A DNA stretch of 23,572 nt, taken from the IMG/VR virus record IMGVR_UViG_3300045016_000216. One strand, given 5' to 3'. Each line of letters opens with the position of its first letter. The first letter of the stretch is position 1. This document shows, piece after piece, positions 1-23,572 of the stretch. The notes beneath the pieces were generated by a model, which saw only the letters and a list, made by a program, of their open reading frames with translations, was not told the DNA's origin and searched no databases. This stretch comes from an uncultured virus (IMG/VR IMGVR_UViG_3300045016_000216). Its lineage: Duplodnaviria; Heunggongvirae; Uroviricota; Caudoviricetes. The translations under genes were made by a program, and so were the position numbers.

Positions 1-1486
1 TTCTAGTTGACATAAATAATCTCCATGGGGGCACAGAGAAAGAACCTCTAGGAATCAAGACCATTCCATATTTTCCATATTGAACCCATGAACTAGAATC
101 AACTGAATTACCTGTAACATAAATATGGTTATTACATTTTACAAAAAATGCTTCAGAAGGGACTTTCACACACCATAGTTTTCCTGAATAAATTTGTTCT
201 TCCTTTTTTAGTTTATTTACATAGATATGTTTTATAGAAGAAGACCTTAATCCTTTATAATTATTGTATTCATAAACAGAGGTGGGTATACCTAACAATA
301 AACACATTATCCTTATTACTTCTAAATTTTCCTTTTTAATTTCCTTTTTGACTTTAATCTCAAACCCTTTTATTCTTTTTAGACCTGAAATAGTCCCATC
401 TGCTAAAACGGAATTATTAATAAATAATTCCGTTTGTTCTTTTGTTAATTTATAGGGTAAATCAACGGGTAGTTTTTTATTAGGTGCAATAGATAATAAC
501 CAATCCGACATTTCCCCGTACAATTCAAAGGAAATAATATTTTCAGTTATACTTTCACAAAATATTTCTCCGCTCCTTATAAGGGCTTCCCTTATTATTT
601 TACACTTTTCAGGATTCGCTTTTTCTGATTGATATATTACTACATTATTTTTGGTATATCTTTTTCTTTTGTTTATAGTACCATCTGTCCAAAACCAAGA
701 TAAAATGATCACTTGTTCATTTGATATGTTAGATTCTGTGGGAAAATTGTAATCCATTCCTACACGGTTAATACAATCATTAAATGAAAGGGTTTTTGTT
801 GTTCTCCATTTATATTCTTCATCTCTATGTTGCCAATGAGACACTACCCAACGATGGTTTTCACTAACAATGGTTTTAAAATTCCTATTATATAATTTGT
901 ATAACTTTTCATTATGAACTTCAAATATAGGAATTTCTTCTATTTTCTGCCATTCTGTTTTCCCGTAATTGAAAGTCAGAATTTCATCTCCTACTTTTAA
1001 ATTTGATAAATTGTTCCATCCTGATCTAGTCAATATTGAATGGTCTTCTTCTGTCATACAATACCAAGGGTATCTTGCTATCAACTCAGGAGAAGTCAAA
1101 CCAAATCCATGTATCTTATTTTTAGGGATAAAGTCAGGAGCTTTACAGATAACTCTCCAACATTGATCTAACCAAGAGAGTAAGGATTCTTTTCTTCCCC
1201 CTACCATTCCCCCTAAAGCTACATACTCATAATTATCAAGGTAATATCTTAAATACTTTTCATCTTCATTGTAATGATAGCAAGGAAGAGGTTTTAATCC
1301 ACAATCTTCCATAACTTTTTGATTGATCAGAGTTTCTTCGGCGTTACCAATACAATCAAGATTGGTATAAACTTCTAAATATTCTAAATTAGCCTTGATA
1401 AATCTTATGTAATCGGTTAGATTAATAGTTGTGTTTTTGGTTAAGGCTGTATAAGCTCCAGAATCTAAAAAGATCCTAGTTTTCAT
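1..1486 (-). CDS. dpdA: DpdA/TGT-like 7-deazaguanine DNA transglycosylase, intein-containing, 3' end outside the window
   Basis: Hand translation from ATG at 1486 (overlaps the gat-queC stop): MKTRIFLDSGAYTALTK...NLDCIGN...PLPCYH...YVALGGMV...KIHGFGLT...RYPWY|intein|SVDSSSWVQYGKYG. DSG, LD, GG, HGFG and xDS are TGT-barrel motifs. The frame stays open to the left edge, which explains its absence from the ORF track. It lies directly downstream of folE/gat-queC. Confidence 0.8.
   Translation of the reverse strand, partial: MKTRIFLDSGAYTALTKNTTINLTDYIRFIKANLEYLEVYTNLDCIGNAEETLINQKVMEDCGLKPLPCYHYNEDEKYLRYYLDNYEYVALGGMVGGRKESLLSWLDQCWRVICKAPDFIPKNKIHGFGLTSPELIARYPWYCMTEEDHSILTRSGWNNLSNLKVGDEILTFNYGKTEWQKIEEIPIFEVHNEKLYKLYNRNFKTIVSENHRWVVSHWQHRDEEYKWRTTKTLSFNDCINRVGMDYNFPTESNISNEQVIILSWFWTDGTINKRKRYTKNNVVIYQSEKANPEKCKIIREALIRSGEIFCESITENIISFELYGEMSDWLLSIAPNKKLPVDLPYKLTKEQTELFINNSVLADGTISGLKRIKGFEIKVKKEIKKENLEVIRIMCLLLGIPTSVYEYNNYKGLRSSSIKHIYVNKLKKEEQIYSGKLWCVKVPSEAFFVKCNNHIYVTGNSVDSSSWVQYGKYGMVLIPRGSFSVPPWRLFMSTR
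107..1060 (-). mobile_element. Intein (318 aa) with LAGLIDADG homing endonuclease, inside the DpdA-like gene
   Basis: Block A CMTEEDHSILTRSGW, block B VSENHRW, LAGLIDADG-like blocks LSWFWTDG and NSVLADG, block F LWCVKVPSEAFFV, end YVTGN followed by Ser+1. Excision restores YPWY-SVDSSSW. Confidence 0.9.
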
Positions 1487-2813
1487 ATTTTATGCAATCT
1501 TCAACCTTATTCATTATAAAAGCCTTTTTTCTCATATAGCAAGGTCCGCACACCCCACAATGCAAATCTCTACCTTCATAACAAGACCAAGTTAGATGTA
1601 GAGGAGCCTTAAGTTCTAACCCCATTTTTACTATCTCATGTTTCATTAAGTTTCCAACAGGCTGTAACATTTCTACCCTGTTTTGTAGATTGGTAGCATA
1701 AGGTAGGATGTCATTGAATTTTTGAGCAAAGATCATCTCATTATCAGGATAGGCCCCGCTTTCTTCAAGATTATTTCCCAAAGCTATGTAAGTTACTCCT
1801 CTTGATTCTGCAAGTGCTGTAGCTATGGAATACATTATTAAATTTCTTGCAGGAACCCACTCCCAAGCAAGTTCAGCGGAAGCCTCTCCATCTGCTAATT
1901 GATCTTTTGTGTTTGTAAGTCTTGAATGTCCGATAACAGTTTTGAAGATGTCAAGAGGAACCAAAAGATAGGACATGTTAAGGTAATCTGAAACATCTTT
2001 TACAGCTTGAATTTCTTTTTTTTCTGCCCTGCATCCATAAACAAAATGGACTAAAGTAACATCATATCCTTGATCTTTTAAATAGGTTGCAGTTACTACA
2101 GAATCTAATCCACCTGAACATATTACTAATACCTTTTTATCTTTTTCAGGGGCAGGTCTCCAAAGAGAATGGGGTTGAATTAGTTGTCCTCCTTTCAATA
2201 CCAACAGAGAATAAGGGGGAACTTGCACTATTTTGTTATCATAGGTATTTAGATATTTTCTTAAAGAGGAAAAATAGATAGTATCTCCTTTAAATGTTAT
2301 AAATAAAGGTTTGTAATTCACCGCTAAATATAGAGTATGAGTTTTCTTATCCCATATTGCCATAGCATAGGATCCTACAATCTCATCTCTTAGTACCTCA
2401 ATAAGATGTTCTACAGTACCGTTCCAAATTTTTTCTAATAATGGAGCTATTACAGCAGAATCAATTTTGGATTCTGTTTTCAAGGAATATTTTTTAATTA
2501 GTTCCTTGTCATTTGCAATAGTACCATTATGAGCAACTACAAATCTCTTTGTAACGAAAGGTTGGACATCTTTATCAGTTTTGTTTTCTACATATTCTGT
2601 AGTAGGTTCGGCCCTATTATTATTTATAGCTATTTCATAAATACTAATCGGTATCTTAGGAATAACACCTTTTTCTATAGAGGAATAGAGAGTTCCATCA
2701 ATATAAATACCGCAAGAATCTCTACCTCTTTCTTGTGCTTTTTTGATAATGTCCCTTAAATAAAAGGAATCTATTTTTGCGGAATCTACTAAACATCCAC
2801 TTATAGAACACAT
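1476..2813 (-). CDS. queC: Gat-QueC fusion (class II glutamine amidotransferase + preQ0 synthase; archaeosine-forming type)
   Basis: N-terminal MCSISG (Ntn Cys), RGRDS, HNG and DS. C-terminal SGGLDS PP-loop, VPARN, YPDN and SCY...CGVCGPC zinc motif. Confidence 0.93.
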   Translation of the reverse strand: MCSISGCLVDSAKIDSFYLRDIIKKAQERGRDSCGIYIDGTLYSSIEKGVIPKIPISIYEIAINNNRAEPTTEYVENKTDKDVQPFVTKRFVVAHNGTIANDKELIKKYSLKTESKIDSAVIAPLLEKIWNGTVEHLIEVLRDEIVGSYAMAIWDKKTHTLYLAVNYKPLFITFKGDTIYFSSLRKYLNTYDNKIVQVPPYSLLVLKGGQLIQPHSLWRPAPEKDKKVLVICSGGLDSVVTATYLKDQGYDVTLVHFVYGCRAEKKEIQAVKDVSDYLNMSYLLVPLDIFKTVIGHSRLTNTKDQLADGEASAELAWEWVPARNLIMYSIATALAESRGVTYIALGNNLEESGAYPDNEMIFAQKFNDILPYATNLQNRVEMLQPVGNLMKHEIVKMGLELKAPLHLTWSCYEGRDLHCGVCGPCYMRKKAFIMNKVEDCIKYEN

Positions 2814-2816
2814 AAG

Positions 2817-3386
2817 TTATCCTTTCGAGATCCTTGCAAGGAATTCATCTTTACATCCCCCATCATTAGTCCTAAACAAACCTCTGGTAGCTATTGCTTC
2901 ATAGGGGGAATTGAATTTTTTCAATCCTCTCATCTCTTTGCAAAGATGTCTGGCACTCATTACAAGAATTTGACCTTGAGGTTTTAAGACTTCTTCAAAT
3001 TCATTTACAATTTGATTCACAAGTCTTTCAGCCACTTGAAGTCTGCCAGAATAATAATCTACCATTCTTCCTATTTTACTTGCTCCTAAAACTAATTGGT
3101 CAGGAATGTAAGAATAGTAGTATTCACCAAAGAAGGGAAGCATGTGGTGTTCACAAAGGGAGAAGAAGTAACCTTGATCTATGAGCATTTCATCATAAAG
3201 AATTCCATCTTCTCCATTTGGAACAGTCATGATCCTAGGTTTTTTGTCCTGTTGATACCCACAAAAAAGTTCCTCATACATTTCAGCCATCCTTTTTGGA
3301 GTATCAACAAGACCATTCCTGTTCAGATCCTCACCAATTTCCTTAAGAAAACCGGCAAATATTACCACCAAGGCATTTTTGTTCAT
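2817..3386 (-). CDS. folE: GTP cyclohydrolase I
   Basis: TPKR, SLCEHHMLPFFG, SKIGR, RLQVAERL, HLCKEMRG. Confidence 0.95.
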   Translation of the reverse strand: MNKNALVVIFAGFLKEIGEDLNRNGLVDTPKRMAEMYEELFCGYQQDKKPRIMTVPNGEDGILYDEMLIDQGYFFSLCEHHMLPFFGEYYYSYIPDQLVLGASKIGRMVDYYSGRLQVAERLVNQIVNEFEEVLKPQGQILVMSARHLCKEMRGLKKFNSPYEAIATRGLFRTNDGGCKDEFLARISKG

Positions 3387-4045
3387 TATTGAGCCTCAGC
3401 AGGAGCTTCAGCAGGAGCTTCAACAGGTTTAGGTTTAACAGGAGCCAATGTATCGAAACTCATAACTCCATCCCCATTGACAAGGATAAGTTTCTTGAAC
3501 CTGTCATATTTAGTTCCTAACTGATTGGGGTTTTTTCCATCTGCTAAAGCAGTAGCTGGAGTAAGTTTAGATCCTCCCCATTGTTCAAGATACATTTCCA
3601 CCAATTCTTTCTTGGTGTACTTAGCTTCAGCAATTTTGTTTTTTAGCCAAATTATCCTTTCTCCAGGACCTCTCTCTTTCTTTTCCTTGGGCTCTTTCGG
3701 AGGTTTAGGTTCTTTAGCTTTCTTTTCCTTTTTCGGAGCTTCAGCTTCTACCTTTTCTTGAGGTTCCGCAGCTTCTACTTTTTCTTTAGGTTCCGCAGGA
3801 GTAGATGGAGGAGCATCATCTGTACCATACATAAAATTCCACATATCAGCTACCATTTGAGGAATTTTGTCTGTCTTGTCTGGATGATTTTCAATCAAGT
3901 CATCCATCTTGTTGGTGAAGTCTTCGATTAGTTGTTCCTTAGTTTTCCCTACACTCTTGATTTTAGGATCAATAAGACCGGAATCGTTTAGGGATTTGAT
4001 TGCCTCTTTCAACTTTGTTAAGTCAATTAAACCAATTTCTTTCAT
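3386..4045 (-). CDS. Putative DNA-binding protein: SAP/Rho-N-like N-terminus, K/E/P/A-rich linker, shared C-terminal wHTH-like domain (paralog 1)
   Basis: RBS aaggagg. TAATG overlap with folE. C-terminal domain is about half identical by eye to that of 17173..17679. Confidence 0.6.
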   Translation of the reverse strand: MKEIGLIDLTKLKEAIKSLNDSGLIDPKIKSVGKTKEQLIEDFTNKMDDLIENHPDKTDKIPQMVADMWNFMYGTDDAPPSTPAEPKEKVEAAEPQEKVEAEAPKKEKKAKEPKPPKEPKEKKERGPGERIIWLKNKIAEAKYTKKELVEMYLEQWGGSKLTPATALADGKNPNQLGTKYDRFKKLILVNGDGVMSFDTLAPVKPKPVEAPAEAPAEAQ

Positions 4046-4097
4046 AAAGCCTCCTTGATTTTTTTTGTCTCTAAGGACATTTTTTTATTCTACTACT

Positions 4098-4134
4098 AAT
4101 ATAGCATATTTTTTGAAAAACCGAAAATTATTTT
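4098..4134 (-). promoter_or_regulatory. Putative class II (middle) promoter, copy 1
   Basis: AAAATAATTTTCGGTTTTTCAAAAAATATGCTATATT: extended -10 (TGnTATATT), no TTGACA. 31/37 ungapped identity with 13013..13049. Confidence 0.6.
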
Positions 4135-4163
4135 TCCTCGGAAATTCAAAAAATTTTTTTCCC

Positions 4164-4820
4164 TTATCTCTCATGTTTAGAACCTGACCAAAGATACTTG
4201 TGTAATGGAACATTTATTCCAAAATCAAACATTTTTATTTTTATTGCATCCTCAACTAGAGCTTGATCTGAATATTTAGGTTTAACTGCACTTAGGAAAA
4301 ATCTGGCTCTACACCCATAATCTATCAAACTCTTCCTCACCAATACAGCCTCAGCCAACTGTTTAAAATCTTCCACCGGAATTTTTACAAAATCATCTTT
4401 TGTTAAATTAGCAAAAGACCAATAATTCATCTTATTTTGGTAATCTAATTTATAATCCACAACCCAACATAAATCCTTAAACCATCTGAATATAGTAGGT
4501 ATAGGTTGAGTTCCATTAGTTTCCACACTTATTTTGTATTTAGCTGCGGAAAATCTATCAATTAAGGTGTATACTGCCCTTTCTTGCAGTAAAGGCTCTC
4601 CTCCAGTTATTGTGATTTTTTTACAGCCATAAAATTCTACTTGTCTAAAAATTTCCTCTACACTCATGTCCTTTCCAGAACTTTCTTCTTGGGCATATTT
4701 TGTGTCACAGTACCAGCACCTTAAATTACAATTTGAAAAACGTATGAAAGTGCTGAATGTTCCCTGTCCCCATAGATTACATTCCCCATCTATTGAGTGG
4801 AAAATACTGAAAATTTTCAT
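4164..4820 (-). CDS. queE: 7-carboxy-7-deazaguanine synthase (radical SAM)
   Basis: SIDGE, FIRFSNCNLRCWYCDT (CxxxCxxC), ITGGEP, ETNG. Confidence 0.95.
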   Translation of the reverse strand: MKIFSIFHSIDGECNLWGQGTFSTFIRFSNCNLRCWYCDTKYAQEESSGKDMSVEEIFRQVEFYGCKKITITGGEPLLQERAVYTLIDRFSAAKYKISVETNGTQPIPTIFRWFKDLCWVVDYKLDYQNKMNYWSFANLTKDDFVKIPVEDFKQLAEAVLVRKSLIDYGCRARFFLSAVKPKYSDQALVEDAIKIKMFDFGINVPLHKYLWSGSKHER

Positions 4821-5164
4821 TTTACCTCCAATTCAGCATAAGAATCGGGTGTTTCATACAACCTAAGCCTTTTTAGATCAGGTAGTAGGTTTTTAAGATC
4901 ATCAGCTATCCAAAATAATAAGTTTTCTGCTGTAGGGTTTTCTAGGATTTCATTTAACAAACAATGGTCTAATAATTGAATTATCCTACTATTTACTACT
5001 TCTTTCAGGTATGAGAAATCCATAACCATTCCTGTTAAAGGATTAACATGTCCCTCTACAACAACATCTAATCGGAATCTATGACCATGTAAAAATCTAC
5101 ATTTACCTTCATAATTCGGCAATTTATGTGCTGAATCAAAATAAAAAGTTTTAGCTATGATCAC
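4817..5164 (-). CDS. queD: 6-carboxytetrahydropterin synthase
   Basis: FDSAHKL, CRFLHGH, LDH, NPTAEN, YETP. Confidence 0.95.
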   Translation of the reverse strand: MIIAKTFYFDSAHKLPNYEGKCRFLHGHRFRLDVVVEGHVNPLTGMVMDFSYLKEVVNSRIIQLLDHCLLNEILENPTAENLLFWIADDLKNLLPDLKRLRLYETPDSYAELEVK

Positions 5165-5737: not shown

Positions 5738-7251
5738 TATGTAAAGTCCCATGTCCTTTCTGAGTCTAAATTAACTTGACCCAAGCTAAGTTGTTGTAAT
5801 ACTATGCAGTTTTCTTCCTCATTAAATTCCTTGTGTCTGTGACCTAATAATCCTATTCTGACCAAATGATGTCTTTTTTCCTCCTTTGTTTGGTTTATTG
5901 CTAAGAAAACATCAACATGACCTAAAATACCTATCCACTCAGACACACCTTCTTGATCCATCTGTTTCTTGTACAAAGCTCCTCTGTTAGCCTGCCATGC
6001 ACTAACTACTAAACAGTTCCTTTCTGAAGCTAATTGACCAAGAATCTTCCAAGTATCATCAATTTGTTCTCTTTTCTGCATTTTTGGATTTTCTGGTCTC
6101 AAAATACCAGCATAGTCAATTACAATAACATCTGGAATAAATTCATCATTTTGCTCTAAAAGATCCAAGTCCCTTTTTATGTCTTCTATATTTGCAGAAA
6201 ATTTAGGGTAACTCATAGCTCTGATATTTGAACCATATTGATATTTGAAGGATTTAATGTGATTTACAGTATTTGCCATAGTAAATTGAGGTCTTTCTAC
6301 AGCCTGAAACCATGTAGCTACCCTGTAATTTACTGTACCTCTGCACTCAGTACAAGGTCTGTAGGCTAAATCTTCAGAATAAGGGGGAATTTCTCCACTC
6401 TCTCCTATTAACCTCTCTCTGTTTTTTCTTCTAGGATCACCACATTCCCCTACTTGGTTGAAATGACAATCAAACACAGGGTAAATCCATTTAGTTGCCC
6501 CTTCTCCAAAAGCTGTCAATCTTTTATAAAATCTTGCGTTCATTGTTTCCTTATTCATTTCAAGGGATATAAATACTACTTTCAATCTCTGGAATAAAGC
6601 TAAAGTAGCAAGTTCTATCAGAACCCAGGTTTTCCCCCTTTTGAAGGCCCCCATCACCCCTATAACCCAACCTCTTTCCATAGGGCCTATCATTCTGCCC
6701 AGTTCCCCCGGAAATCTTAACAGTCCCTCTGGATTAGCATCAAAAACAGTCCTAACTTGTTTTTCATCAAATACATCATACCATCCTGTGGTAAGTTTTT
6801 CTACTTTTTTGTAGTTCCTTATTTGCTCCTCAGCCTCATCAACTTTACCTATTGATAATAATTTGGCAATATTATCCGCAATTATTTCAAGTTCTCTTTT
6901 TTTGAAATATTTTAGTGCGGAATCTAAAATATAATCTTCATTTATTCCTTGATCTTCCTCATACTGTTCTGATAAGTGAACAAGGAAAGCCTCTATGATG
7001 TCTGTTTCTTCCTGAGAAAGTTCACCTTTTTCAAGGTCAAAAATATTTTTTATGTTTGTTTTAGGAGATTTTCCATATTCCTCAAAGTATTGTAAACACC
7101 AATGACAGATTATTTTTACAAAACTGTTTTTTATGTAATTAGGATCATAGATTGGTAATATCTCCTGTAAAAATTTTTCAGAAATAATAGAAGCAGTGGC
7201 TATCTTTTTTTCTACGGTGACATCTAAATCCCTCTTTGCTAATATTGTCAT
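5737..7251 (-). CDS. dnaB: Replicative DnaB-like (SF4) helicase
   Basis: Walker A GAFKRGKT, ISLEM, Walker B VIVIDYA, SAWQANR. Confidence 0.88.
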   Translation of the reverse strand: MTILAKRDLDVTVEKKIATASIISEKFLQEILPIYDPNYIKNSFVKIICHWCLQYFEEYGKSPKTNIKNIFDLEKGELSQEETDIIEAFLVHLSEQYEEDQGINEDYILDSALKYFKKRELEIIADNIAKLLSIGKVDEAEEQIRNYKKVEKLTTGWYDVFDEKQVRTVFDANPEGLLRFPGELGRMIGPMERGWVIGVMGAFKRGKTWVLIELATLALFQRLKVVFISLEMNKETMNARFYKRLTAFGEGATKWIYPVFDCHFNQVGECGDPRRKNRERLIGESGEIPPYSEDLAYRPCTECRGTVNYRVATWFQAVERPQFTMANTVNHIKSFKYQYGSNIRAMSYPKFSANIEDIKRDLDLLEQNDEFIPDVIVIDYAGILRPENPKMQKREQIDDTWKILGQLASERNCLVVSAWQANRGALYKKQMDQEGVSEWIGILGHVDVFLAINQTKEEKRHHLVRIGLLGHRHKEFNEEENCIVLQQLSLGQVNLDSERTWDFT

Positions 7252-7874
7252 ATGGTTACCTCATTCAATACAGCAAATTCTCCATGTAATTCCTTAGCCT
7301 TTTCATTGTAAGCTAAAGCGGCTTCTTCTTTAGTAGAAAATGTCCCTATAAAAATAGGGATATAATCACACATTATAAAAGCTCCCCATTTTTTTATATC
7401 TTTGCAAAAGGAAACTCCCTTAAACCCTGATGTATTATTCTTTGAAATACCTCTATTTTTTATATTTTCCATTTGAGTGCAAATTCTTAAATTTTCTTTT
7501 CTGTTATCCAATTTATTTCTATTTTTATGATCCACTGTTGTTTCCTTTTCTTTGTGGAGATTCAGAATGAATTTTGTAAATGAAACAGGTCCTATTTCTT
7601 TGTTTGACATTACATATCCTGTATTTATTCTGTGCCATTTTATATTTTTAACCTTATTATAATCTTCCAAATCAAATATAGTTTCTGCAATTTCTTCACC
7701 TTTCCTATTATAAAGCTTCATCCTACAATGGTTATTATCAATGATAATTTCATTAGGATCAAATCTTGTCCTTTTAAGAATTTTTCCACATCTATTAATT
7801 TGCATATAATGGTTTACACACAATCCTTTTGCATAAAATTTGTTATTACACCCTTCAATGGAGCAAATTTTCAT
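7248..7874 (-). CDS. Free-standing HNH-AP2 homing endonuclease
   Basis: N-terminal CSIEGC...AKGLCVNHY; VDHKNRNKLDNRKENLR (HNH); NNTSGFKGVS...W.A.I...GTFSTKEEAALAYN...HGEFA (AP2). Confidence 0.9.
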   Translation of the reverse strand: MKICSIEGCNNKFYAKGLCVNHYMQINRCGKILKRTRFDPNEIIIDNNHCRMKLYNRKGEEIAETIFDLEDYNKVKNIKWHRINTGYVMSNKEIGPVSFTKFILNLHKEKETTVDHKNRNKLDNRKENLRICTQMENIKNRGISKNNTSGFKGVSFCKDIKKWGAFIMCDYIPIFIGTFSTKEEAALAYNEKAKELHGEFAVLNEVTI

Positions 7875-10146: not shown

Positions 10147-11034
10147 TCACAAAAACAAATCCGATCTGAGTTTTTTTACATCTTCCTCAGACAAATCAGC
10201 AGGATCACCTTCCGACAAAGTTAAAATTTCTACCTCTTTTACAATGGCTGAAAGATCATAAGCCAATTTATCAGCTTCTTTTTGGGCATCACTATCATAA
10301 AGGATAAAGGCTCTTTTTATTCCAGAAAAATGTACCAACTGATTTTTTGTGTACTTTTTACCAAATGTAGCTACTGCACCCTCTCCTATTCTCCATACAT
10401 CAGTAACACCTTCAACAATAACCACATTGTTTCTTACCGAATCTAGGTTATAAACTGCTGACTTTATGGGTATTACTGATTCTTCCACAGGTGCATTTTT
10501 ATAAGGTTCTTTTAATCCTTCAAAAATAGACCTTGCTAAGAAAGTTACCAATCTATTGTGAAGATAAACAGGTACTATTATTCTAAATTTGTAATCTCCA
10601 ACCTCTGCACAACCAAGCAAATCATATTTCTTTTCTAGGTAATCTGGATCAAATTTTCTTTTTATCAGATAATTTCTGTGCATTGATTGTAAAGGTGTTG
10701 CTAGGCTTGGTAACTTTACAAGATCAGAGGTTCTTCTTTCTTTCGGTACTTTTATGTTCCTATCTTGGTATTTATCTACAATTTTTTGAGCATAATTATA
10801 GGAACATTTCTCAACCTCTTGGATGTATTTTAGAACTGTTCCCTTAACGGAACATTTCCAACAAGATATTAATTTATCCGGAGAAATGCCCAGGTGTCGG
10901 GAAGGATCTGGACAAAATGGACAGTTAACTTCGACCCATCCTAGTGTTGTGTTTTTCCCCTCTGTTTGATAGTCTATCCTTTTATCCTCTAAATATCTTA
11001 TTATATCAAAATTTTGTAGTGGAAAACTTACCAT
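10147..11034 (-). CDS. DnaG-type DNA primase (zinc finger + TOPRIM)
   Basis: CPFC...H...CWKC; RIIVPV; IVEGVTD; LYDSD; GDPAD. Confidence 0.9.
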   Translation of the reverse strand: MVSFPLQNFDIIRYLEDKRIDYQTEGKNTTLGWVEVNCPFCPDPSRHLGISPDKLISCWKCSVKGTVLKYIQEVEKCSYNYAQKIVDKYQDRNIKVPKERRTSDLVKLPSLATPLQSMHRNYLIKRKFDPDYLEKKYDLLGCAEVGDYKFRIIVPVYLHNRLVTFLARSIFEGLKEPYKNAPVEESVIPIKSAVYNLDSVRNNVVIVEGVTDVWRIGEGAVATFGKKYTKNQLVHFSGIKRAFILYDSDAQKEADKLAYDLSAIVKEVEILTLSEGDPADLSEEDVKKLRSDLFL

Positions 11035-11620
11035 ATTGCTCTTTTTCCCCGATTATCCTTGCTTTTATAGCTTCTTCCTTAGAGTTAAAATATCCTAAAT
11101 GAATATGTTTCTTGTTTTTCCATAAACAAGCTGTCCATTTATTCGTTCTCTTATTAAGTCCTACTCCTTTATGCCCAGAAGTGTTGTTTGACGGGACTTT
11201 CCTATTTCTATTATTTTCTGAATAGGTAGATTCCCTTATATTTTTTCTCCTATTATCCCAAGGTTTTCTATTTTTATGATCAGGAAACTTATTTGCGGGT
11301 ATTTCCAATAAATAACGGGCCATATCCATACCTTTGTTATAAGATATTGTGTAACCTTTATAATCTTTCCACCACACTATGTCTTTCACCTTCTCATAAT
11401 CCTCAAAATCAAAATAAGTTTCTCCCACTTCTTCCCCTTCTATATTATAGAGTTTCATAATGCAGAAAAATCTACCAAAAATTATTTCATTCTTTTCCTT
11501 TATTATTCTATTTTTTATTCTTCCTTGATTTCTCATTTGAAAATAATGTCTGTGACAATATCCTTTTGCTAAGTGAGGAATTTGACAGTTTTCTATTTGA
11601 CATTTTTTTATTTTTCTCAT
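11006..11620 (-). CDS. Free-standing HNH-AP2 homing endonuclease (paralog of 7248..7874)
   Basis: CQIENC...AKGYCHRHY; PDHKNRKPWDNRRKNIR; NNTSGHKGV...HLGYFNSKEEAIKAR. Confidence 0.9.
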   Translation of the reverse strand: MRKIKKCQIENCQIPHLAKGYCHRHYFQMRNQGRIKNRIIKEKNEIIFGRFFCIMKLYNIEGEEVGETYFDFEDYEKVKDIVWWKDYKGYTISYNKGMDMARYLLEIPANKFPDHKNRKPWDNRRKNIRESTYSENNRNRKVPSNNTSGHKGVGLNKRTNKWTACLWKNKKHIHLGYFNSKEEAIKARIIGEKEQYGKFSTTKF

Positions 11621-21659: not shown

Positions 21660-21742
21660 AAGAACGCTCCTTTCTTTGGGTTTTGGAAGAAATCTCCCGC
21701 AAAATTGTTAAAAATCACTTTTTGTAGAAAAGTCTCTCAAAC

Positions 21743-21914
21743 TGTCAAAATCTTGACATGTCAAAAAAATGACATGTCAAAAAATTGACAGTAAAAAATA
21801 TTTACAAGTCAAAGAGCAATGTAAAAAATGTTTACACGTGTAAAAAATGTTTACAGTCAAATAAATGACAGTAAAGATTGTTTACAAGTCAACTGCTATC
21901 AAAAGAATAGCAGT
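21743..21914. repeat. Tandem array of palindromic operator-like boxes
   Basis: WGTCAA-N4-WTGACA at 21743, 21759, 21775 and 21855; WGTAAA-N5-TTTACA at 21790, 21820, 21839 and 21870; actgctat-N7-atagcagt at 21892. Confidence 0.85.
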
Positions 21915-21943
21915 AGTATAGCATAAAGACAGAAAAAAGTCAA
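21915..21943 (-). promoter_or_regulatory. sigma70 promoter for the first early operon
   Basis: TTGACT-17-TATACT with TG extension. Confidence 0.75.
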
Positions 21944-21958
21944 GCTTAAAATCAAAAT

Positions 21959-22219
21959 TTGGTATATACTTTGCATACTGTAAACTAAGTTCACAGTATT
22001 ACAAAATTGTAAGATTACAAAATTGTATAGTCAAAGGCTATAAAACTGCTATGCAATCTATATGCCAAATTACAAAATTGTAAAACTGTGAACTAAGTTC
22101 ACACTACAAAATTGTATAGTCAAAGGCTATAAAACTGCTATGCAATCTATATGCCAAATTACAAAATTGTAGTAAGAAAAAATTGGCCCTAAAATTGCTA
22201 TATGCAAGTTCTATACCAA
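21959..22219. promoter_or_regulatory. Cluster of seven sigma54-type (-24/-12) GG-N10-GC elements
   Basis: Plus strand: TTGGTATATACTTTGCA (21959), AAGGCTATAAAACTGCT (22034, 22123), TTGGCCCTAAAATTGCT (22183). Minus strand: TTGGCATATAGATTGCA (22052-22068, 22141-22157), TTGGTATAGAACTTGCA (22203-22219). Confidence 0.7.
22016..22171. repeat. 67-bp exact direct repeat, 2 copies, period 89
   Basis: 22016-22082 = 22105-22171; each copy is bounded by TACAAAATTGTA. Confidence 0.95.
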
Positions 22220-22441
22220 GTATAGATAAAGCAAATAAAACGGATATAAGAAAGTCAAGGGGAAAAACCTGATATAATAAAATCAATAGATTGTATATAC
22301 CCTTGATTATAACCCTAACAAAAAAAGATAATGTCTCATATTGTAAATATGGAATAATGATTAAAATACTAATGATAAAAACAAGTTAAGGCATAGATAG
22401 ACTAATGAAGTAAAAAAAATATATAAATGATAAAAAAAAGC

Positions 22442-22471
22442 TTGACAAAGTCTATGAAAAGAATATATGTT
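22442..22471 (+). promoter_or_regulatory. Rightward sigma70-type promoter
   Basis: TTGACA-18-TATGTT with an A-rich UP region. Confidence 0.5.
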
Positions 22472-22743: not shown

Positions 22744-23172
22744 ATGATGAAGAAAACAGAGGTTATTAAAATGGACTATACCCAAAAAGAAATTATCCAA
22801 CTTATCCAAGGGGAAAAACCTGTGCAGGTGGTCCCCGTGTGGGAGATGAAAAACATAGATCACGAAACAAGGGTTAAGGAAAAACGGGTGTCCCAGGAAT
22901 ATGCTCCACCAAAGGTCGTGGGGGACACCAAAAAAGAGAGGATCGGATATCTTTTTGATAAAATTGCGAAGGGAGAATATACCCGCAACGACCTTGCTTC
23001 CTTGGTGTCTTCGGTATACCCCATTAAACCGAGTACCACAAAAACAGAATTAAGCGATCTTAAAAACCAGAGTTTCAAAGGGAGTAAATACGCTCCTTAT
23101 TGGCCGGAGAAATGGGTAGGGTATATGGTTATTGAGGTTAATAAGATCTTCTCTCTCAAAAAGCTTGTATAG
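22744..23172 (+). CDS. Protein with divergent shared wHTH-like domain (paralog 3)
   Basis: aaggaagga RBS before ATG 22744; ERIGYLFDKIAKGEYTRNDL...TTKTELSDLKN...GSKY. Confidence 0.65.
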   Translation: MMKKTEVIKMDYTQKEIIQLIQGEKPVQVVPVWEMKNIDHETRVKEKRVSQEYAPPKVVGDTKKERIGYLFDKIAKGEYTRNDLASLVSSVYPIKPSTTKTELSDLKNQSFKGSKYAPYWPEKWVGYMVIEVNKIFSLKKLV

Positions 23173-23192
23173 GGGAGGGGAGGGAAGATACC

Positions 23193-23357
23193 ATGTCAAA
23201 CAAAAGTTTAGAGTCCAAATTAATCAAGGTCAAAGCGGACCTGGAAAAACGGATAAAGGGGATTGAGAGGGTAATTGCTGTAAGCAAACAAGACATATCC
23301 TTCTTCCTTTGGCTCCAAGAAAACCTAATCAAGGAAAAGCAACTAATCAATAGCTAA
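23193..23357 (+). CDS. Hypothetical coiled-coil protein (54 aa, not in ORF track)
   Basis: ggaggg RBS; MSNKSLESKLIKVKADLEKRIKGIERV...; followed by a terminator. Confidence 0.65.
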   Translation: MSNKSLESKLIKVKADLEKRIKGIERVIAVSKQDISFFLWLQENLIKEKQLINS

Positions 23358-23363
23358 ACCCTT

Positions 23364-23410
23364 AAAACCCTTGTCTGATAGTATATACCGATTAGGCAAG
23401 GGTTTTTTAT
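23364..23410 (+). terminator. Rho-independent terminator
   Basis: cccttgtctgat / attaggcaaggg stem (2 G-U pairs) followed by TTTTTTAT. Confidence 0.8.
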
Positions 23411-23420
23411 TGCCTATAGT

Positions 23421-23572
23421 CCTGTAGCCTGTAGCCTGTCCTGGTCCTGTAGCCTGTCCTGGTCCTGTAGCCTGTCCTGGTCCTGTAGCCTGTCCTGGTC
23501 CTGTAGCCTGTCCTGGTCCTGTAGCCTGTCCTGGTCCTGTAGCCTGTCCTGGTCCTGTAGCCTGTCCTGGTC
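23421..23572. repeat. 18-bp tandem repeat (CCTGTAGCCTGTCCTGGT), 8 perfect copies, runs off the window
   Basis: Units start at 23428 and recur every 18 bp to 23571; preceded by a partial CCTGTAG. Confidence 0.97.

Follow-up and report, generated by a model that had tools for sequence, protein, structure and literature searches.

Why does an uncultured phage carry, within 260 bp, seven sequences resembling the core promoter of sigma-54 RNA polymerase, six of them in face-to-face pairs, and what use could it make of them? The question is raised by positions 21959 to 22219 of a 23,572-nt stretch of DNA, hereafter the window, from a member of the Caudoviricetes (IMG/VR record IMGVR_UViG_3300045016_000216). 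The window is the minus strand of bases 1–23572 of the 39,692-bp record (CheckV completeness 40%) and its G+C content is about 33%. An earlier interpretation made from the letters alone (the sequence-only reading) had proposed that the array is a decoy titrating host sigma-54, or a roadblock comparable to the injection-stop signal of phage T5. We tentatively favour another answer. Judged against the bacterial sigma-54 consensus, the cluster would be a set of sigma-54-type promoter modules, tandem and two-way, in the central control region of the phage; we place this explanation first among those weighed below, while stopping short of calling it probable.

All seven elements of the sequence-only reading were found where it had placed them (Table 1). 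They have the GG-N10-GC spacing of a sigma-54 -24/-12 promoter, and five are of the TTGG-N8-TTGC form; these five are also the only matches to TTGGYMY-N5-TTGCW in the window. The remaining two, already described as weaker, are copies of a poor AAGGCT...CTGCT sequence abutting sigma70 -35 boxes; the left end of E2w touches the -35 box (22034–22029) of a leftward sigma70-like promoter. Since both AAGGCTATAAAACTGCT elements match poorly and start at the base where TTGACT begins on the opposite strand (in the first copy this TTGACT is the -35 box itself), we count them as weak partners rather than as independent sites. The strong boxes represent four distinct sequences and not five independent ones, as E3 and E5 belong to an exact 67-nt duplication. 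Three of them point left (E3, E5 and E7) and two right (E1 and E6). The extended consensus TGGCAC/T(G/A)-N4-TTGC(A/T) is matched by E3 and E5 (TGGCATA...TTGCA), whereas E6 (TGGCCC), E1 and E7 (TGGTAT), and E2w and E4w (AAGGCT...CTGC) depart from it.

Table 1. The cluster and the features around it (window coordinates).
Feature	Position	Strand	Remarks
E1, strong box TTGGTATATACTTTGCA	21959–21975	+	C(-12) at 21974; predicted rightward start ~21986
E2w, weak look-alike AAGGCTATAAAACTGCT	22034–22050	+	faces E3; predicted start 22061
E3, strong box TTGGCATATAGATTGCA	22052–22068	-	closest to consensus; predicted leftward start ~22041
E4w, second copy of weak AAGGCTATAAAACTGCT	22123–22139	+	within the 67-nt duplication
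E5, second copy of E3 TTGGCATATAGATTGCA	22141–22157	-	within the 67-nt duplication; predicted leftward start ~22130
E6, strong box TTGGCCCTAAAATTGCT	22183–22199	+	left half of symmetric module; predicted rightward start ~22210
E7, strong box TTGGTATAGAACTTGCA	22203–22219	-	right half of symmetric module; predicted leftward start ~22192
Eighth box TTGGTATAGATTTTGCA	beyond the window's end	+	opposite a degenerate partner; points toward the terminase genes
Exact 67-nt duplication	22016–22082 / 22105–22171		each copy: palindrome C, E2w/E4w, E3/E5, palindrome C
Palindrome B ACTGTAAACTAAGTTCACAGT (ACTGTRAACTAAGTTCACAGT)	21977–21997; second copy 22085–22105		first copy centred on the predicted start of E1
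Palindrome C TACAAAATTGTA, five copies	22000, 22016, 22071, 22105, 22160		range 22000–22171
Sigma70-like promoter TTGACT-17-TACAAT	22006–22034	-	just downstream of E3, co-directional
Sigma70-like promoter TTGACT-17-TATACT with TG extension	21915–21943	-	faces the early arm
Sigma70-like promoter TTGACA-18-TATGTT	22442–22471	+	downstream of E6, ahead of the small rightward operon
Leftward early/replication arm	2–21659	-	all genes on the - strand
First gene of leftward arm, 75 aa	21432–21659	-
Small rightward operon	22744–23357	+	142-aa ORF 22744–23172, 54-aa ORF 23193–23357

The concentration of these elements is exceptional within the phage. TTGG-N8-TTGC occurs six times in the 39,692-bp contig, five of them in 21959–22219, and seven of the 58 GG-N10-GC matches in the window lie in 21940–22240; across the contig, only 2 of 788 sliding windows of 300 bp hold seven or more of the latter. 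The density also withstood the composition-matched shuffling that the sequence-only reading had named as a check: not one of 2000 dinucleotide-preserving shuffles of the 301-bp stretch reached the observed 7 GG-N10-GC, 5 TGG-N9-TGC and 5 TTGG-N8-TTGC, for which the shuffle means were 0.39, 0.11 and 0.01, respectively. An independently assembled second contig, 99.66% identical over 2349 bp, holds the same elements and has the duplication in both copies. The two contigs differ solely in an 18-bp tandem repeat at the window's end; therefore their polymorphisms are uninformative on the boxes.

These figures bear on the idea that the cluster has no function of its own and is a by-product of local duplications in AT-rich repeats, some boxes being in reality extended sigma70 -10 elements (TGnTATAnn). 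The 67-nt duplication does explain two of the seven boxes, and three boxes read TGGTATA. However, the four distinct strong sequences hold GG, GC and the spacing between them despite differing spacers, the observed count was reached by no shuffle, and the motif recurs in unrelated phages with a clean reversed control (see below). We consider an accidental origin of this kind hardly credible.

The pairing described in the sequence-only reading was confirmed, with 3 nt between the GC dinucleotides in E2w/E3 and E4w/E5 and 5 nt in E6/E7. Its further claim that paired sites could not both initiate normally is not supported by the geometry. In a symmetric module with -12 cytosines at p and p+6, the rightward start is expected at p+12 and the leftward start at p-6, that is, 18 bp apart. 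In the pairs of the window the -12 cytosines are 4–6 bp apart and the predicted starts diverge, at a distance of 18 bp for E6/E7 and 20 bp for E2w/E3 (Table 1); what the arrangement excludes is simultaneous occupancy. Because the predicted transcripts diverge, such a pair would be an interlocked two-way promoter and not two promoters firing into each other. The E6/E7 pair has an inner gap of 3 nt, and its left half (TGGCC) is one base off the pattern used below to search for the module.

A precedent for this layout exists among sigma70 promoters. According to the available text of 10.1101/2020.01.31.928960, bidirectional sigma70 promoters have divergent starts 7–25 bp apart, with a mode of 18 bp, and overlapping -10 elements; in the window it is the predicted starts that diverge within this range. 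As in those promoters (10.1101/2020.01.31.928960; PMC12825309, both as far as their text was available), the cores on opposite strands overlap and one polymerase excludes the other. On the other hand, the promoters of the former study, whose available text does not mention sigma-54, rely on the symmetry of the -10 element, while here -12 boxes face each other across an AT-rich centre of 4–8 bp.

On the explanation we favour, the 260-bp stretch would be the core of the central control region, from which the early arm runs left and the packaging arm right. The host sigma-54 (RpoN) holoenzyme would dock on the boxes as a closed complex and fire only upon the action of an activator ATPase or of a phage substitute. 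Each arm would thus gain a second, conditional set of promoters, upstream of and co-directional with its sigma70 promoters. The E6/E7 pair would be a compact symmetric two-way promoter, able to accept the polymerase in either orientation and never in both, and E2w/E3 and E4w/E5 could have the same two-way layout, less clearly. RpoN binding, initiation at the boxes and the identity of the activator are what we infer from the DNA.

Boxes of the same kind are widespread in other viral contigs. A single-box search with TTGGYATANNNNTTGCATA gave at least 120 stretches, and the statistics given here refer to the 120 listed. Using a relaxed box, TGG[CT]A-N6-TTGC[AT], and the same pattern reversed as control, we counted 207 boxes versus 2 control hits over the 244 kb of these loci, no locus having two control hits. 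Two or more relaxed boxes are present in 33 of the 120 loci among the matches listed, usually within 100–300 bp, and many neighbouring boxes are the canonical TGGCACG-N4-TTGCA. Typically an array occupies the roughly 1 kb that separates two divergent operons. The carriers belong to unrelated groups, among which are a seven-locus family (L043 family) with a common 126-aa protein and an endolysin, and a pair of loci beside a large terminase gene; other carriers are unrelated to these groups or to each other by the flanking open reading frames (ORFs) compared.

The face-to-face arrangement recurs as well. The symmetric module TGGYA-N6-TTGCW-N3-WGCAA-N6-TRCCA (35 bp) was found in at least 135 stretches of viral contigs, at 132 distinct sites on contigs ranging from 4 kb to 480 kb, and in at least 138 stretches of bulk metagenome contigs, while the reversed control matched one stretch in the entire collection of viral contigs. 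The module was absent from the bacteria sampled, namely 401 Bacillota genomes and E. coli K-12. Selection on the arrangement, which the sequence-only reading had suspected, is well supported by the number of distinct sites, by the tight inner gap and by the single control hit. Face-to-face is not the sole paired form, since boxes placed back to back are frequent too, at widely varying gaps. Two further observations concern the module. A hairpin was considered and rejected, because its two halves lack complementary spacers (0–4 of 6 positions identical). In locus L055 the right half of the module is nearly identical to that in the window, a likeness that was set aside because the search pattern can explain it.

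Are the recurrent boxes sites for sigma-54, or for another protein? The free positions of the 264 half-sites are informative in this respect. After TGGCA, C (50%) and T (46%) predominate, followed by G (57%) or A (37%); T precedes TGG in 54%, and the centre of the module is AT-rich. The seed table of PMC12316311 lists sigma-54 promoters described as experimentally validated, in which TGGCAC occurs 236 times and TGGCAT 117 times, and TGGCACG, TGGCACA, TGGCACC and TGGCACT occur 146, 61, 18 and 11 times, respectively. These counts, used in place of a weight matrix, are of substrings anywhere in the listed sequences and not of aligned boxes; read in this way, the preferences of the phage modules at the free positions appear to be the same as those of the seed promoters. 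When the inner gap was allowed to float from 0 to 16 nt, 145 distinct face-to-face sites were obtained, 127 of them with a gap of 1–6 nt (7, 34, 26, 19, 35 and 6 sites for 1 to 6 nt, respectively) and 18 with a longer one. Such variation of the gap fits two independent overlapping sites rather than a rigid dimer.

The latter point weighs on the proposal that a protein other than sigma-54, phage-encoded or not, binds the boxes as symmetric operators, their likeness to sigma-54 sites being convergent or incidental. A 35-bp pseudo-palindrome is indeed a typical unit for dimeric binders, a partner half accompanies every site of one complete jumbo record (G413, see below), and palindromes B and C are interleaved with the window's boxes as they would be in an operator region. 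The module also looks phage-specific, considering its absence from the bacteria sampled and the nature of its neighbours: among 141 flanking ORFs in 28 longer metagenome loci, 119 have no Pfam family and 22 have one, nearly all phage-type. The families are large terminase (three times), Kyano_Gp96 (six), GP88 (three), DUF932, DUF2786/DUF7168, endonuclease VII, homing endonuclease and S-adenosylmethionine lyase, plus one TauE exporter. The recurrence of Kyano_Gp96-domain ORFs near modules (6 ORFs at 5 sampled loci) is a further point for an operator. Against an operator, with gaps of 1–6 nt the two halves can be turned by as much as about 170 degrees relative to each other, single non-palindromic boxes stand alone in record G001, and the free positions follow the sigma-54 logo. 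Moreover, no protein family is common to the array neighbourhoods of unrelated carrier groups, no Sigma54_DBD-like gene was found in five carrier records, and the 142-aa ORF of the region itself has no relatives. Finally, the carriers range from 28% to 61% G+C, over which one conserved phage protein of unchanged specificity is unlikely. Overall, we regard the operator explanation as improbable, though as a serious rival.

As an observation apart, the small Kyano_Gp96-domain ORFs (loci L442, L446, L457, L459 and L465), like the GP88 ORFs elsewhere, lie within 2.5 kb of a module; neither type was found in this window. Several metagenome loci share the window's layout, with a module between small early-type genes and a terminase operon.

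The position of the boxes relative to genes in other carriers bears on the decoy. This explanation holds that the boxes bind sigma-54, as holoenzyme or free, and never fire, so that they titrate the factor or block and occlude sigma70 promoters. In record G001 (222 kb) a strict-plus-relaxed search gave 10 forward and 0 reverse hits and, in the 13 kb examined, all 8 single boxes lie between genes, 34–76 bp upstream of the next ORF and in its orientation, which favours promoter use over a decoy. In G413 (335 kb, complete) 24 strict boxes, against 1 for the control, are all within 20 kb, at about one per small gene, and are thus scattered rather than massed. In G002 (34 kb, complete) all 6 boxes lie in a 1.3-kb gap where the replication and structural arms diverge, and 5 of the 6 are directed at the replication arm. 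The arrays of loci L062 (4 of 4 boxes), L079 (5 of 5) and L081 (5 of 5) are wholly one-directional toward the downstream operon, and lie 150–400 bp upstream of a canonical sigma70 promoter and gene, as read by eye; a single direction would be needless for a pure sink. Boxes without a fixed relation to genes or orientation, as a decoy would have, are therefore not what G001, L062, L079 and L081 show. Furthermore, a face-to-face pair takes one polymerase at a time and so adds no titration capacity.

Two side observations were made in these carriers. At locus L425 of G001 (2597–3175), the boxes at 2597 and 3141 run straight into TATAAAT, and the other six into looser A+T-rich stretches; in the first two, the -12 box is thus fused to an element that is -10-like or T4-late-like. 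Locus L032 (record G005) contains at 540–640 and 1560–1690 a repeated structured element, TTGACGTAAG followed by hairpins, downstream of two + strand boxes. One copy ends in a clear terminator. The element has no Rfam match and is a candidate for a box-driven small RNA.

The decoy nevertheless draws on real observations. In the available text of PMC4591121, sigma-54 holoenzyme sits inactive on promoters until an activator acts. A gene for such an activator, an enhancer-binding protein (EBP, PF00158), was not found in our 40%-complete contig, where a clamp-loader-type AAA+ protein gave a weak P-loop match, nor in nine other carrier records (G002, G003, G004, G005 and five jumbo records, three of the latter rated 100% complete), which include four rated 100% complete (G002, G410, G411 and G413). 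An activator-domain hit in G001 turned out to be a ClpB-like chaperone, not an EBP. The boxes appear too dense for simultaneous productive use, as tandem boxes in other phages are often 10–14 bp apart and some phages have three modules with a period of 47 bp. In addition, modules between co-directional genes have one half facing backwards, and the boxes of the window are distant from genes, with some 18 bp between E3 or E5 and a sigma70 -35 box downstream. On the other hand, no positive support for a decoy or a T5-like roadblock emerged: the boxes of G001 and G413 are distributed as described above, and in the window itself the strong boxes are upstream of and co-directional with the sigma70 promoters of the arm they face. 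A decoy, sink or brake is an unlikely explanation, although one that we take seriously.

Several of these facts also weigh against the promoter modules that we favour. The missing EBP is one, and no enhancer site was recognised in the control region. A plain promoter role does not explain the tandem boxes 10–14 bp apart, nor the co-directional and intra-ORF modules: when 78 modules were compared with crude ORF calls, 24 lay inside an ORF, 31 between co-directional, 15 between divergent and 7 between convergent ORFs. The window's boxes are 380–560 bp from the first early gene, the sigma70-like promoters being closer. TGGTAT, present in three of the five strong boxes (E1 and E7 among them), is rare among the seed sigma-54 promoters (13 substrings), and TGGTATAGA or TGGTATATA could alternatively be read as an extended sigma70 -10 element. 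No RNA run is listed among those matching the stretch. The paired geometry, which the sequence-only reading had proposed to look for in related phages, recurs in many unrelated ones. None of ten terminase relatives (54–84% identity) has a box in the 0.8–5 kb of upstream DNA available for each, and the array is thus not conserved in the phage's lineage. Finally, three cultured jumbo phages of Brevundimonas and Caulobacter, which are sigma-54 hosts, have no excess of boxes over the reversed control; these phages are distantly related to G413.

Other comparisons with cultured phages were negative. Two cultured cyanophages distantly related to G002, whose hosts presumably lack sigma-54, have no box, a point in favour of the sigma-54 explanation. 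Neither the array of the L043 family nor its 126-aa neighbour has a match among cultured phages. No T4-type terminase was found in the five jumbo records.

With regard to the surroundings, some 2.4 kb of mostly non-coding DNA separate the leftward early/replication arm from a rightward terminase/packaging arm, and the cluster is embedded there, a location deduced from the order of the features on the second contig. There, past the window's end, come about 8 copies of the 18-bp tandem repeat, the eighth box, an AT-rich stretch, a TTGACA-N16/17-TATATT promoter, and a rightward 176-aa ORF with the large terminase subunit. As the sequence-only reading had stated, sigma70-like promoters flank the cluster (Table 1). 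The strong - strand boxes E3, E5 and E7 are upstream of both leftward ones and co-directional with them, and the + strand box E6 is upstream of the rightward TTGACA promoter. Two copies of palindrome C directly adjoin the -24 boxes of E3 and E5, and those at 22000 and 22016 overlap the spacer and the -10 element of the leftward promoter at 22034–22006. Judging from this placement, TACAAAATTGTA is probably a repressor operator gating both types of promoter.

Further repeats are present in this region. Between the leftward promoter at 21943–21915 and the first early gene, at 21740–21900, TGACATGTCA/TTTACA is repeated about every 16 bp, and on the second contig TRF counts TTTGACATGTCAATTT 4.4 times; in this early leader the run looks like an operator or roadblock array. 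The 18-bp tandem repeat ACAGGCTACAGGACCAGG, in about 8 copies, extends over 23400–23572 of the window and 1857–2016 of locus L005, which holds the window's control region, and ends the contig. Rfam gave no match in L005 or in nine other carrier loci. The upstream DNA of the terminase relatives contains no alternative repeat array.

Such a repeat-rich setting raises the possibility that the boxes serve in packaging (cos/pac), as a replication origin or as an injection stop near a genome end. The region adjoins terminase genes, the 18-bp tandem array and an AT-rich stretch are close by, and a G-rich GGGCGGGGTAG motif is found near the arrays of both this phage and the L043 family. But sequences of this kind should be lineage-specific repeats, and the boxes are shared by unrelated phages whose terminases differ, and also occur within gene clusters remote from terminase genes, while the terminase relatives of this phage lack them; moreover, the elements are on both strands and without a fixed period. 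We therefore judge this explanation very improbable. As for the G-rich motif itself, GGGCGGGG(T/G) is present in L005 (1567–1577), L043 (1643 and 1661), L012 (1298) and L076 (1722), and lies 25–220 bp away from the arrays of this phage and of the L043 family. A role as a cohesive end or in packaging is possible; in all, the motif occurs in 8 of the 122 loci scanned (L005 and 7 of the 120 listed), about the number expected by chance.

How do the sigma-54-type promoter modules that we favour compare with known systems? The glnAp2 and nifH promoters are textbook examples of the bacterial class. The consensus given in the available text of PMC12316311 is TGGCAC-N5-7-TTGCT, and the phage boxes likewise place GG and GC at a distance of one helical turn, within TTGGCAY(R)-N4-TTGCW. 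They differ from bacterial sigma-54 promoters in being clustered and paired instead of one per operon, in having no activator or enhancer found with them, in the rare TGGTAT of three window boxes, and in forming a module that the sampled bacteria lack. The closest phage precedent we reached is Pseudomonas phage YuA (AM749441), in whose record three promoter fragments with reporter activity are annotated as 'high activity, -24/-12 consensus sequence'; there too, promoter activity of a phage is ascribed to sigma-54-type sequences. Unlike the boxes described here, however, the YuA fragments are single, intragenic or late, with no arrays or face-to-face pairs, and the genome (64.5% G+C) has 0 TGGYA-N6-TTGCW matches in the 50 kb read. 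The non-productive or intragenic sigma-54 sites of E. coli (PMC4591121, as far as its text was available) offer another parallel, since the holoenzyme is inactive at sites that are not necessarily promoters, but these are scattered singly in the chromosome and not assembled as arrays or symmetric modules in phage control regions.

The injection-stop signal of phage T5, a repeat-rich non-coding stretch near the genome end, resembles the present region in these respects. Here, no evidence of two-step DNA entry was found, and in other phages the boxes lie deep inside the genome.

In agreement with the sequence-only reading, which knew of no such array in phages, full-text literature searches found neither arrays of sigma-54 sites nor paired sites in phages. 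To our knowledge, a phage-associated symmetric sigma-54 module, found in far more than a hundred contigs against a clean control, is undescribed in the literature searched. Transcription by sigma-54 is viewed as a bacterial system under tight gating, and there is hardly any record of its use by phages, the YuA annotation being the sole precedent reached; phages may use the host sigma-54 polymerase far more than is recognised. If the promoter modules are real, sigma-54 boxes, as single sites, arrays or two-way modules, would be common wiring of uncultured phages of lakes, seas and soils, and the module would be the first known for sigma-54 to match the symmetric bidirectional promoters of sigma70, as well as a compact part for synthetic circuits. 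The boxes would also mark the host, which must have rpoN. Either a host activator, a novel phage factor or closed complexes acting by occupancy could be involved; given that no activator gene was found in complete carriers, this would imply a novel way of opening sigma-54 complexes, or the use of closed complexes as switches. A bolder version, which we think doubtful, is that a large and diverse set of uncultured phages runs the host sigma-54 polymerase as a private channel, without a canonical EBP, by means of a phage bypass or replacement factor, the window's cluster being the master switch between early and packaging functions. On this version, sigma-54 boxes, often in the form of the symmetric 35-bp module, would wire the control regions and the early-type gene clusters of these phages, and the factor would either fire them or keep them closed.

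As to the phage itself, all or part of its DNA was matched in 14 sequencing runs, every one a DNA metagenome of lake water. Its DNA polymerase is at most 26% identical to those of cultured phages (tblastn), and the control region has no near relative among cultured phages by blastn. A FolE search of genome contigs gave only 37–45% matches to mixed archaea and bacteria, which point to no host, and no tRNA genes were found in the record. Genes are preceded by Shine-Dalgarno sequences, and promoters of the TTGACA/TATAAT type are present. The ORFs of the small rightward operon have no family match and no relatives beyond this phage; likewise, the flanking 122-aa and 142-aa proteins used as queries retrieved the same phage only, and ESM Atlas had nothing for the 142-aa ORF. 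Directly 3′ of the 54-aa ORF, a terminator-like hairpin (23364–23410; CCCTTG...CAAGGG followed by TTTTTT) would end this operon ahead of the tandem repeat.

The leftward arm comprises a queuosine/7-deazaguanine cluster, a DnaB-type helicase, a primase, a second helicase and many small ORFans. The remainder of the record encodes a family-A DNA polymerase with a UDG domain, the clamp-loader-type AAA+ protein, a gp32-like protein, a RecA/UvsX-like protein, a flap nuclease and SbcCD-like proteins. Three HNH homing-endonuclease genes (window 7248–7874 and 11006–11620; locus L004 2057–2686) accompany the genes for helicase, primase and polymerase, being placed between them or next to them. Finally, the 7-deazaguanine/queuosine set at 2–5164 of the window looks complete, with a DpdA-like transglycosylase, an amidotransferase-QueC fusion, FolE, QueE and QueD, and suggests that the DNA of this phage is modified.

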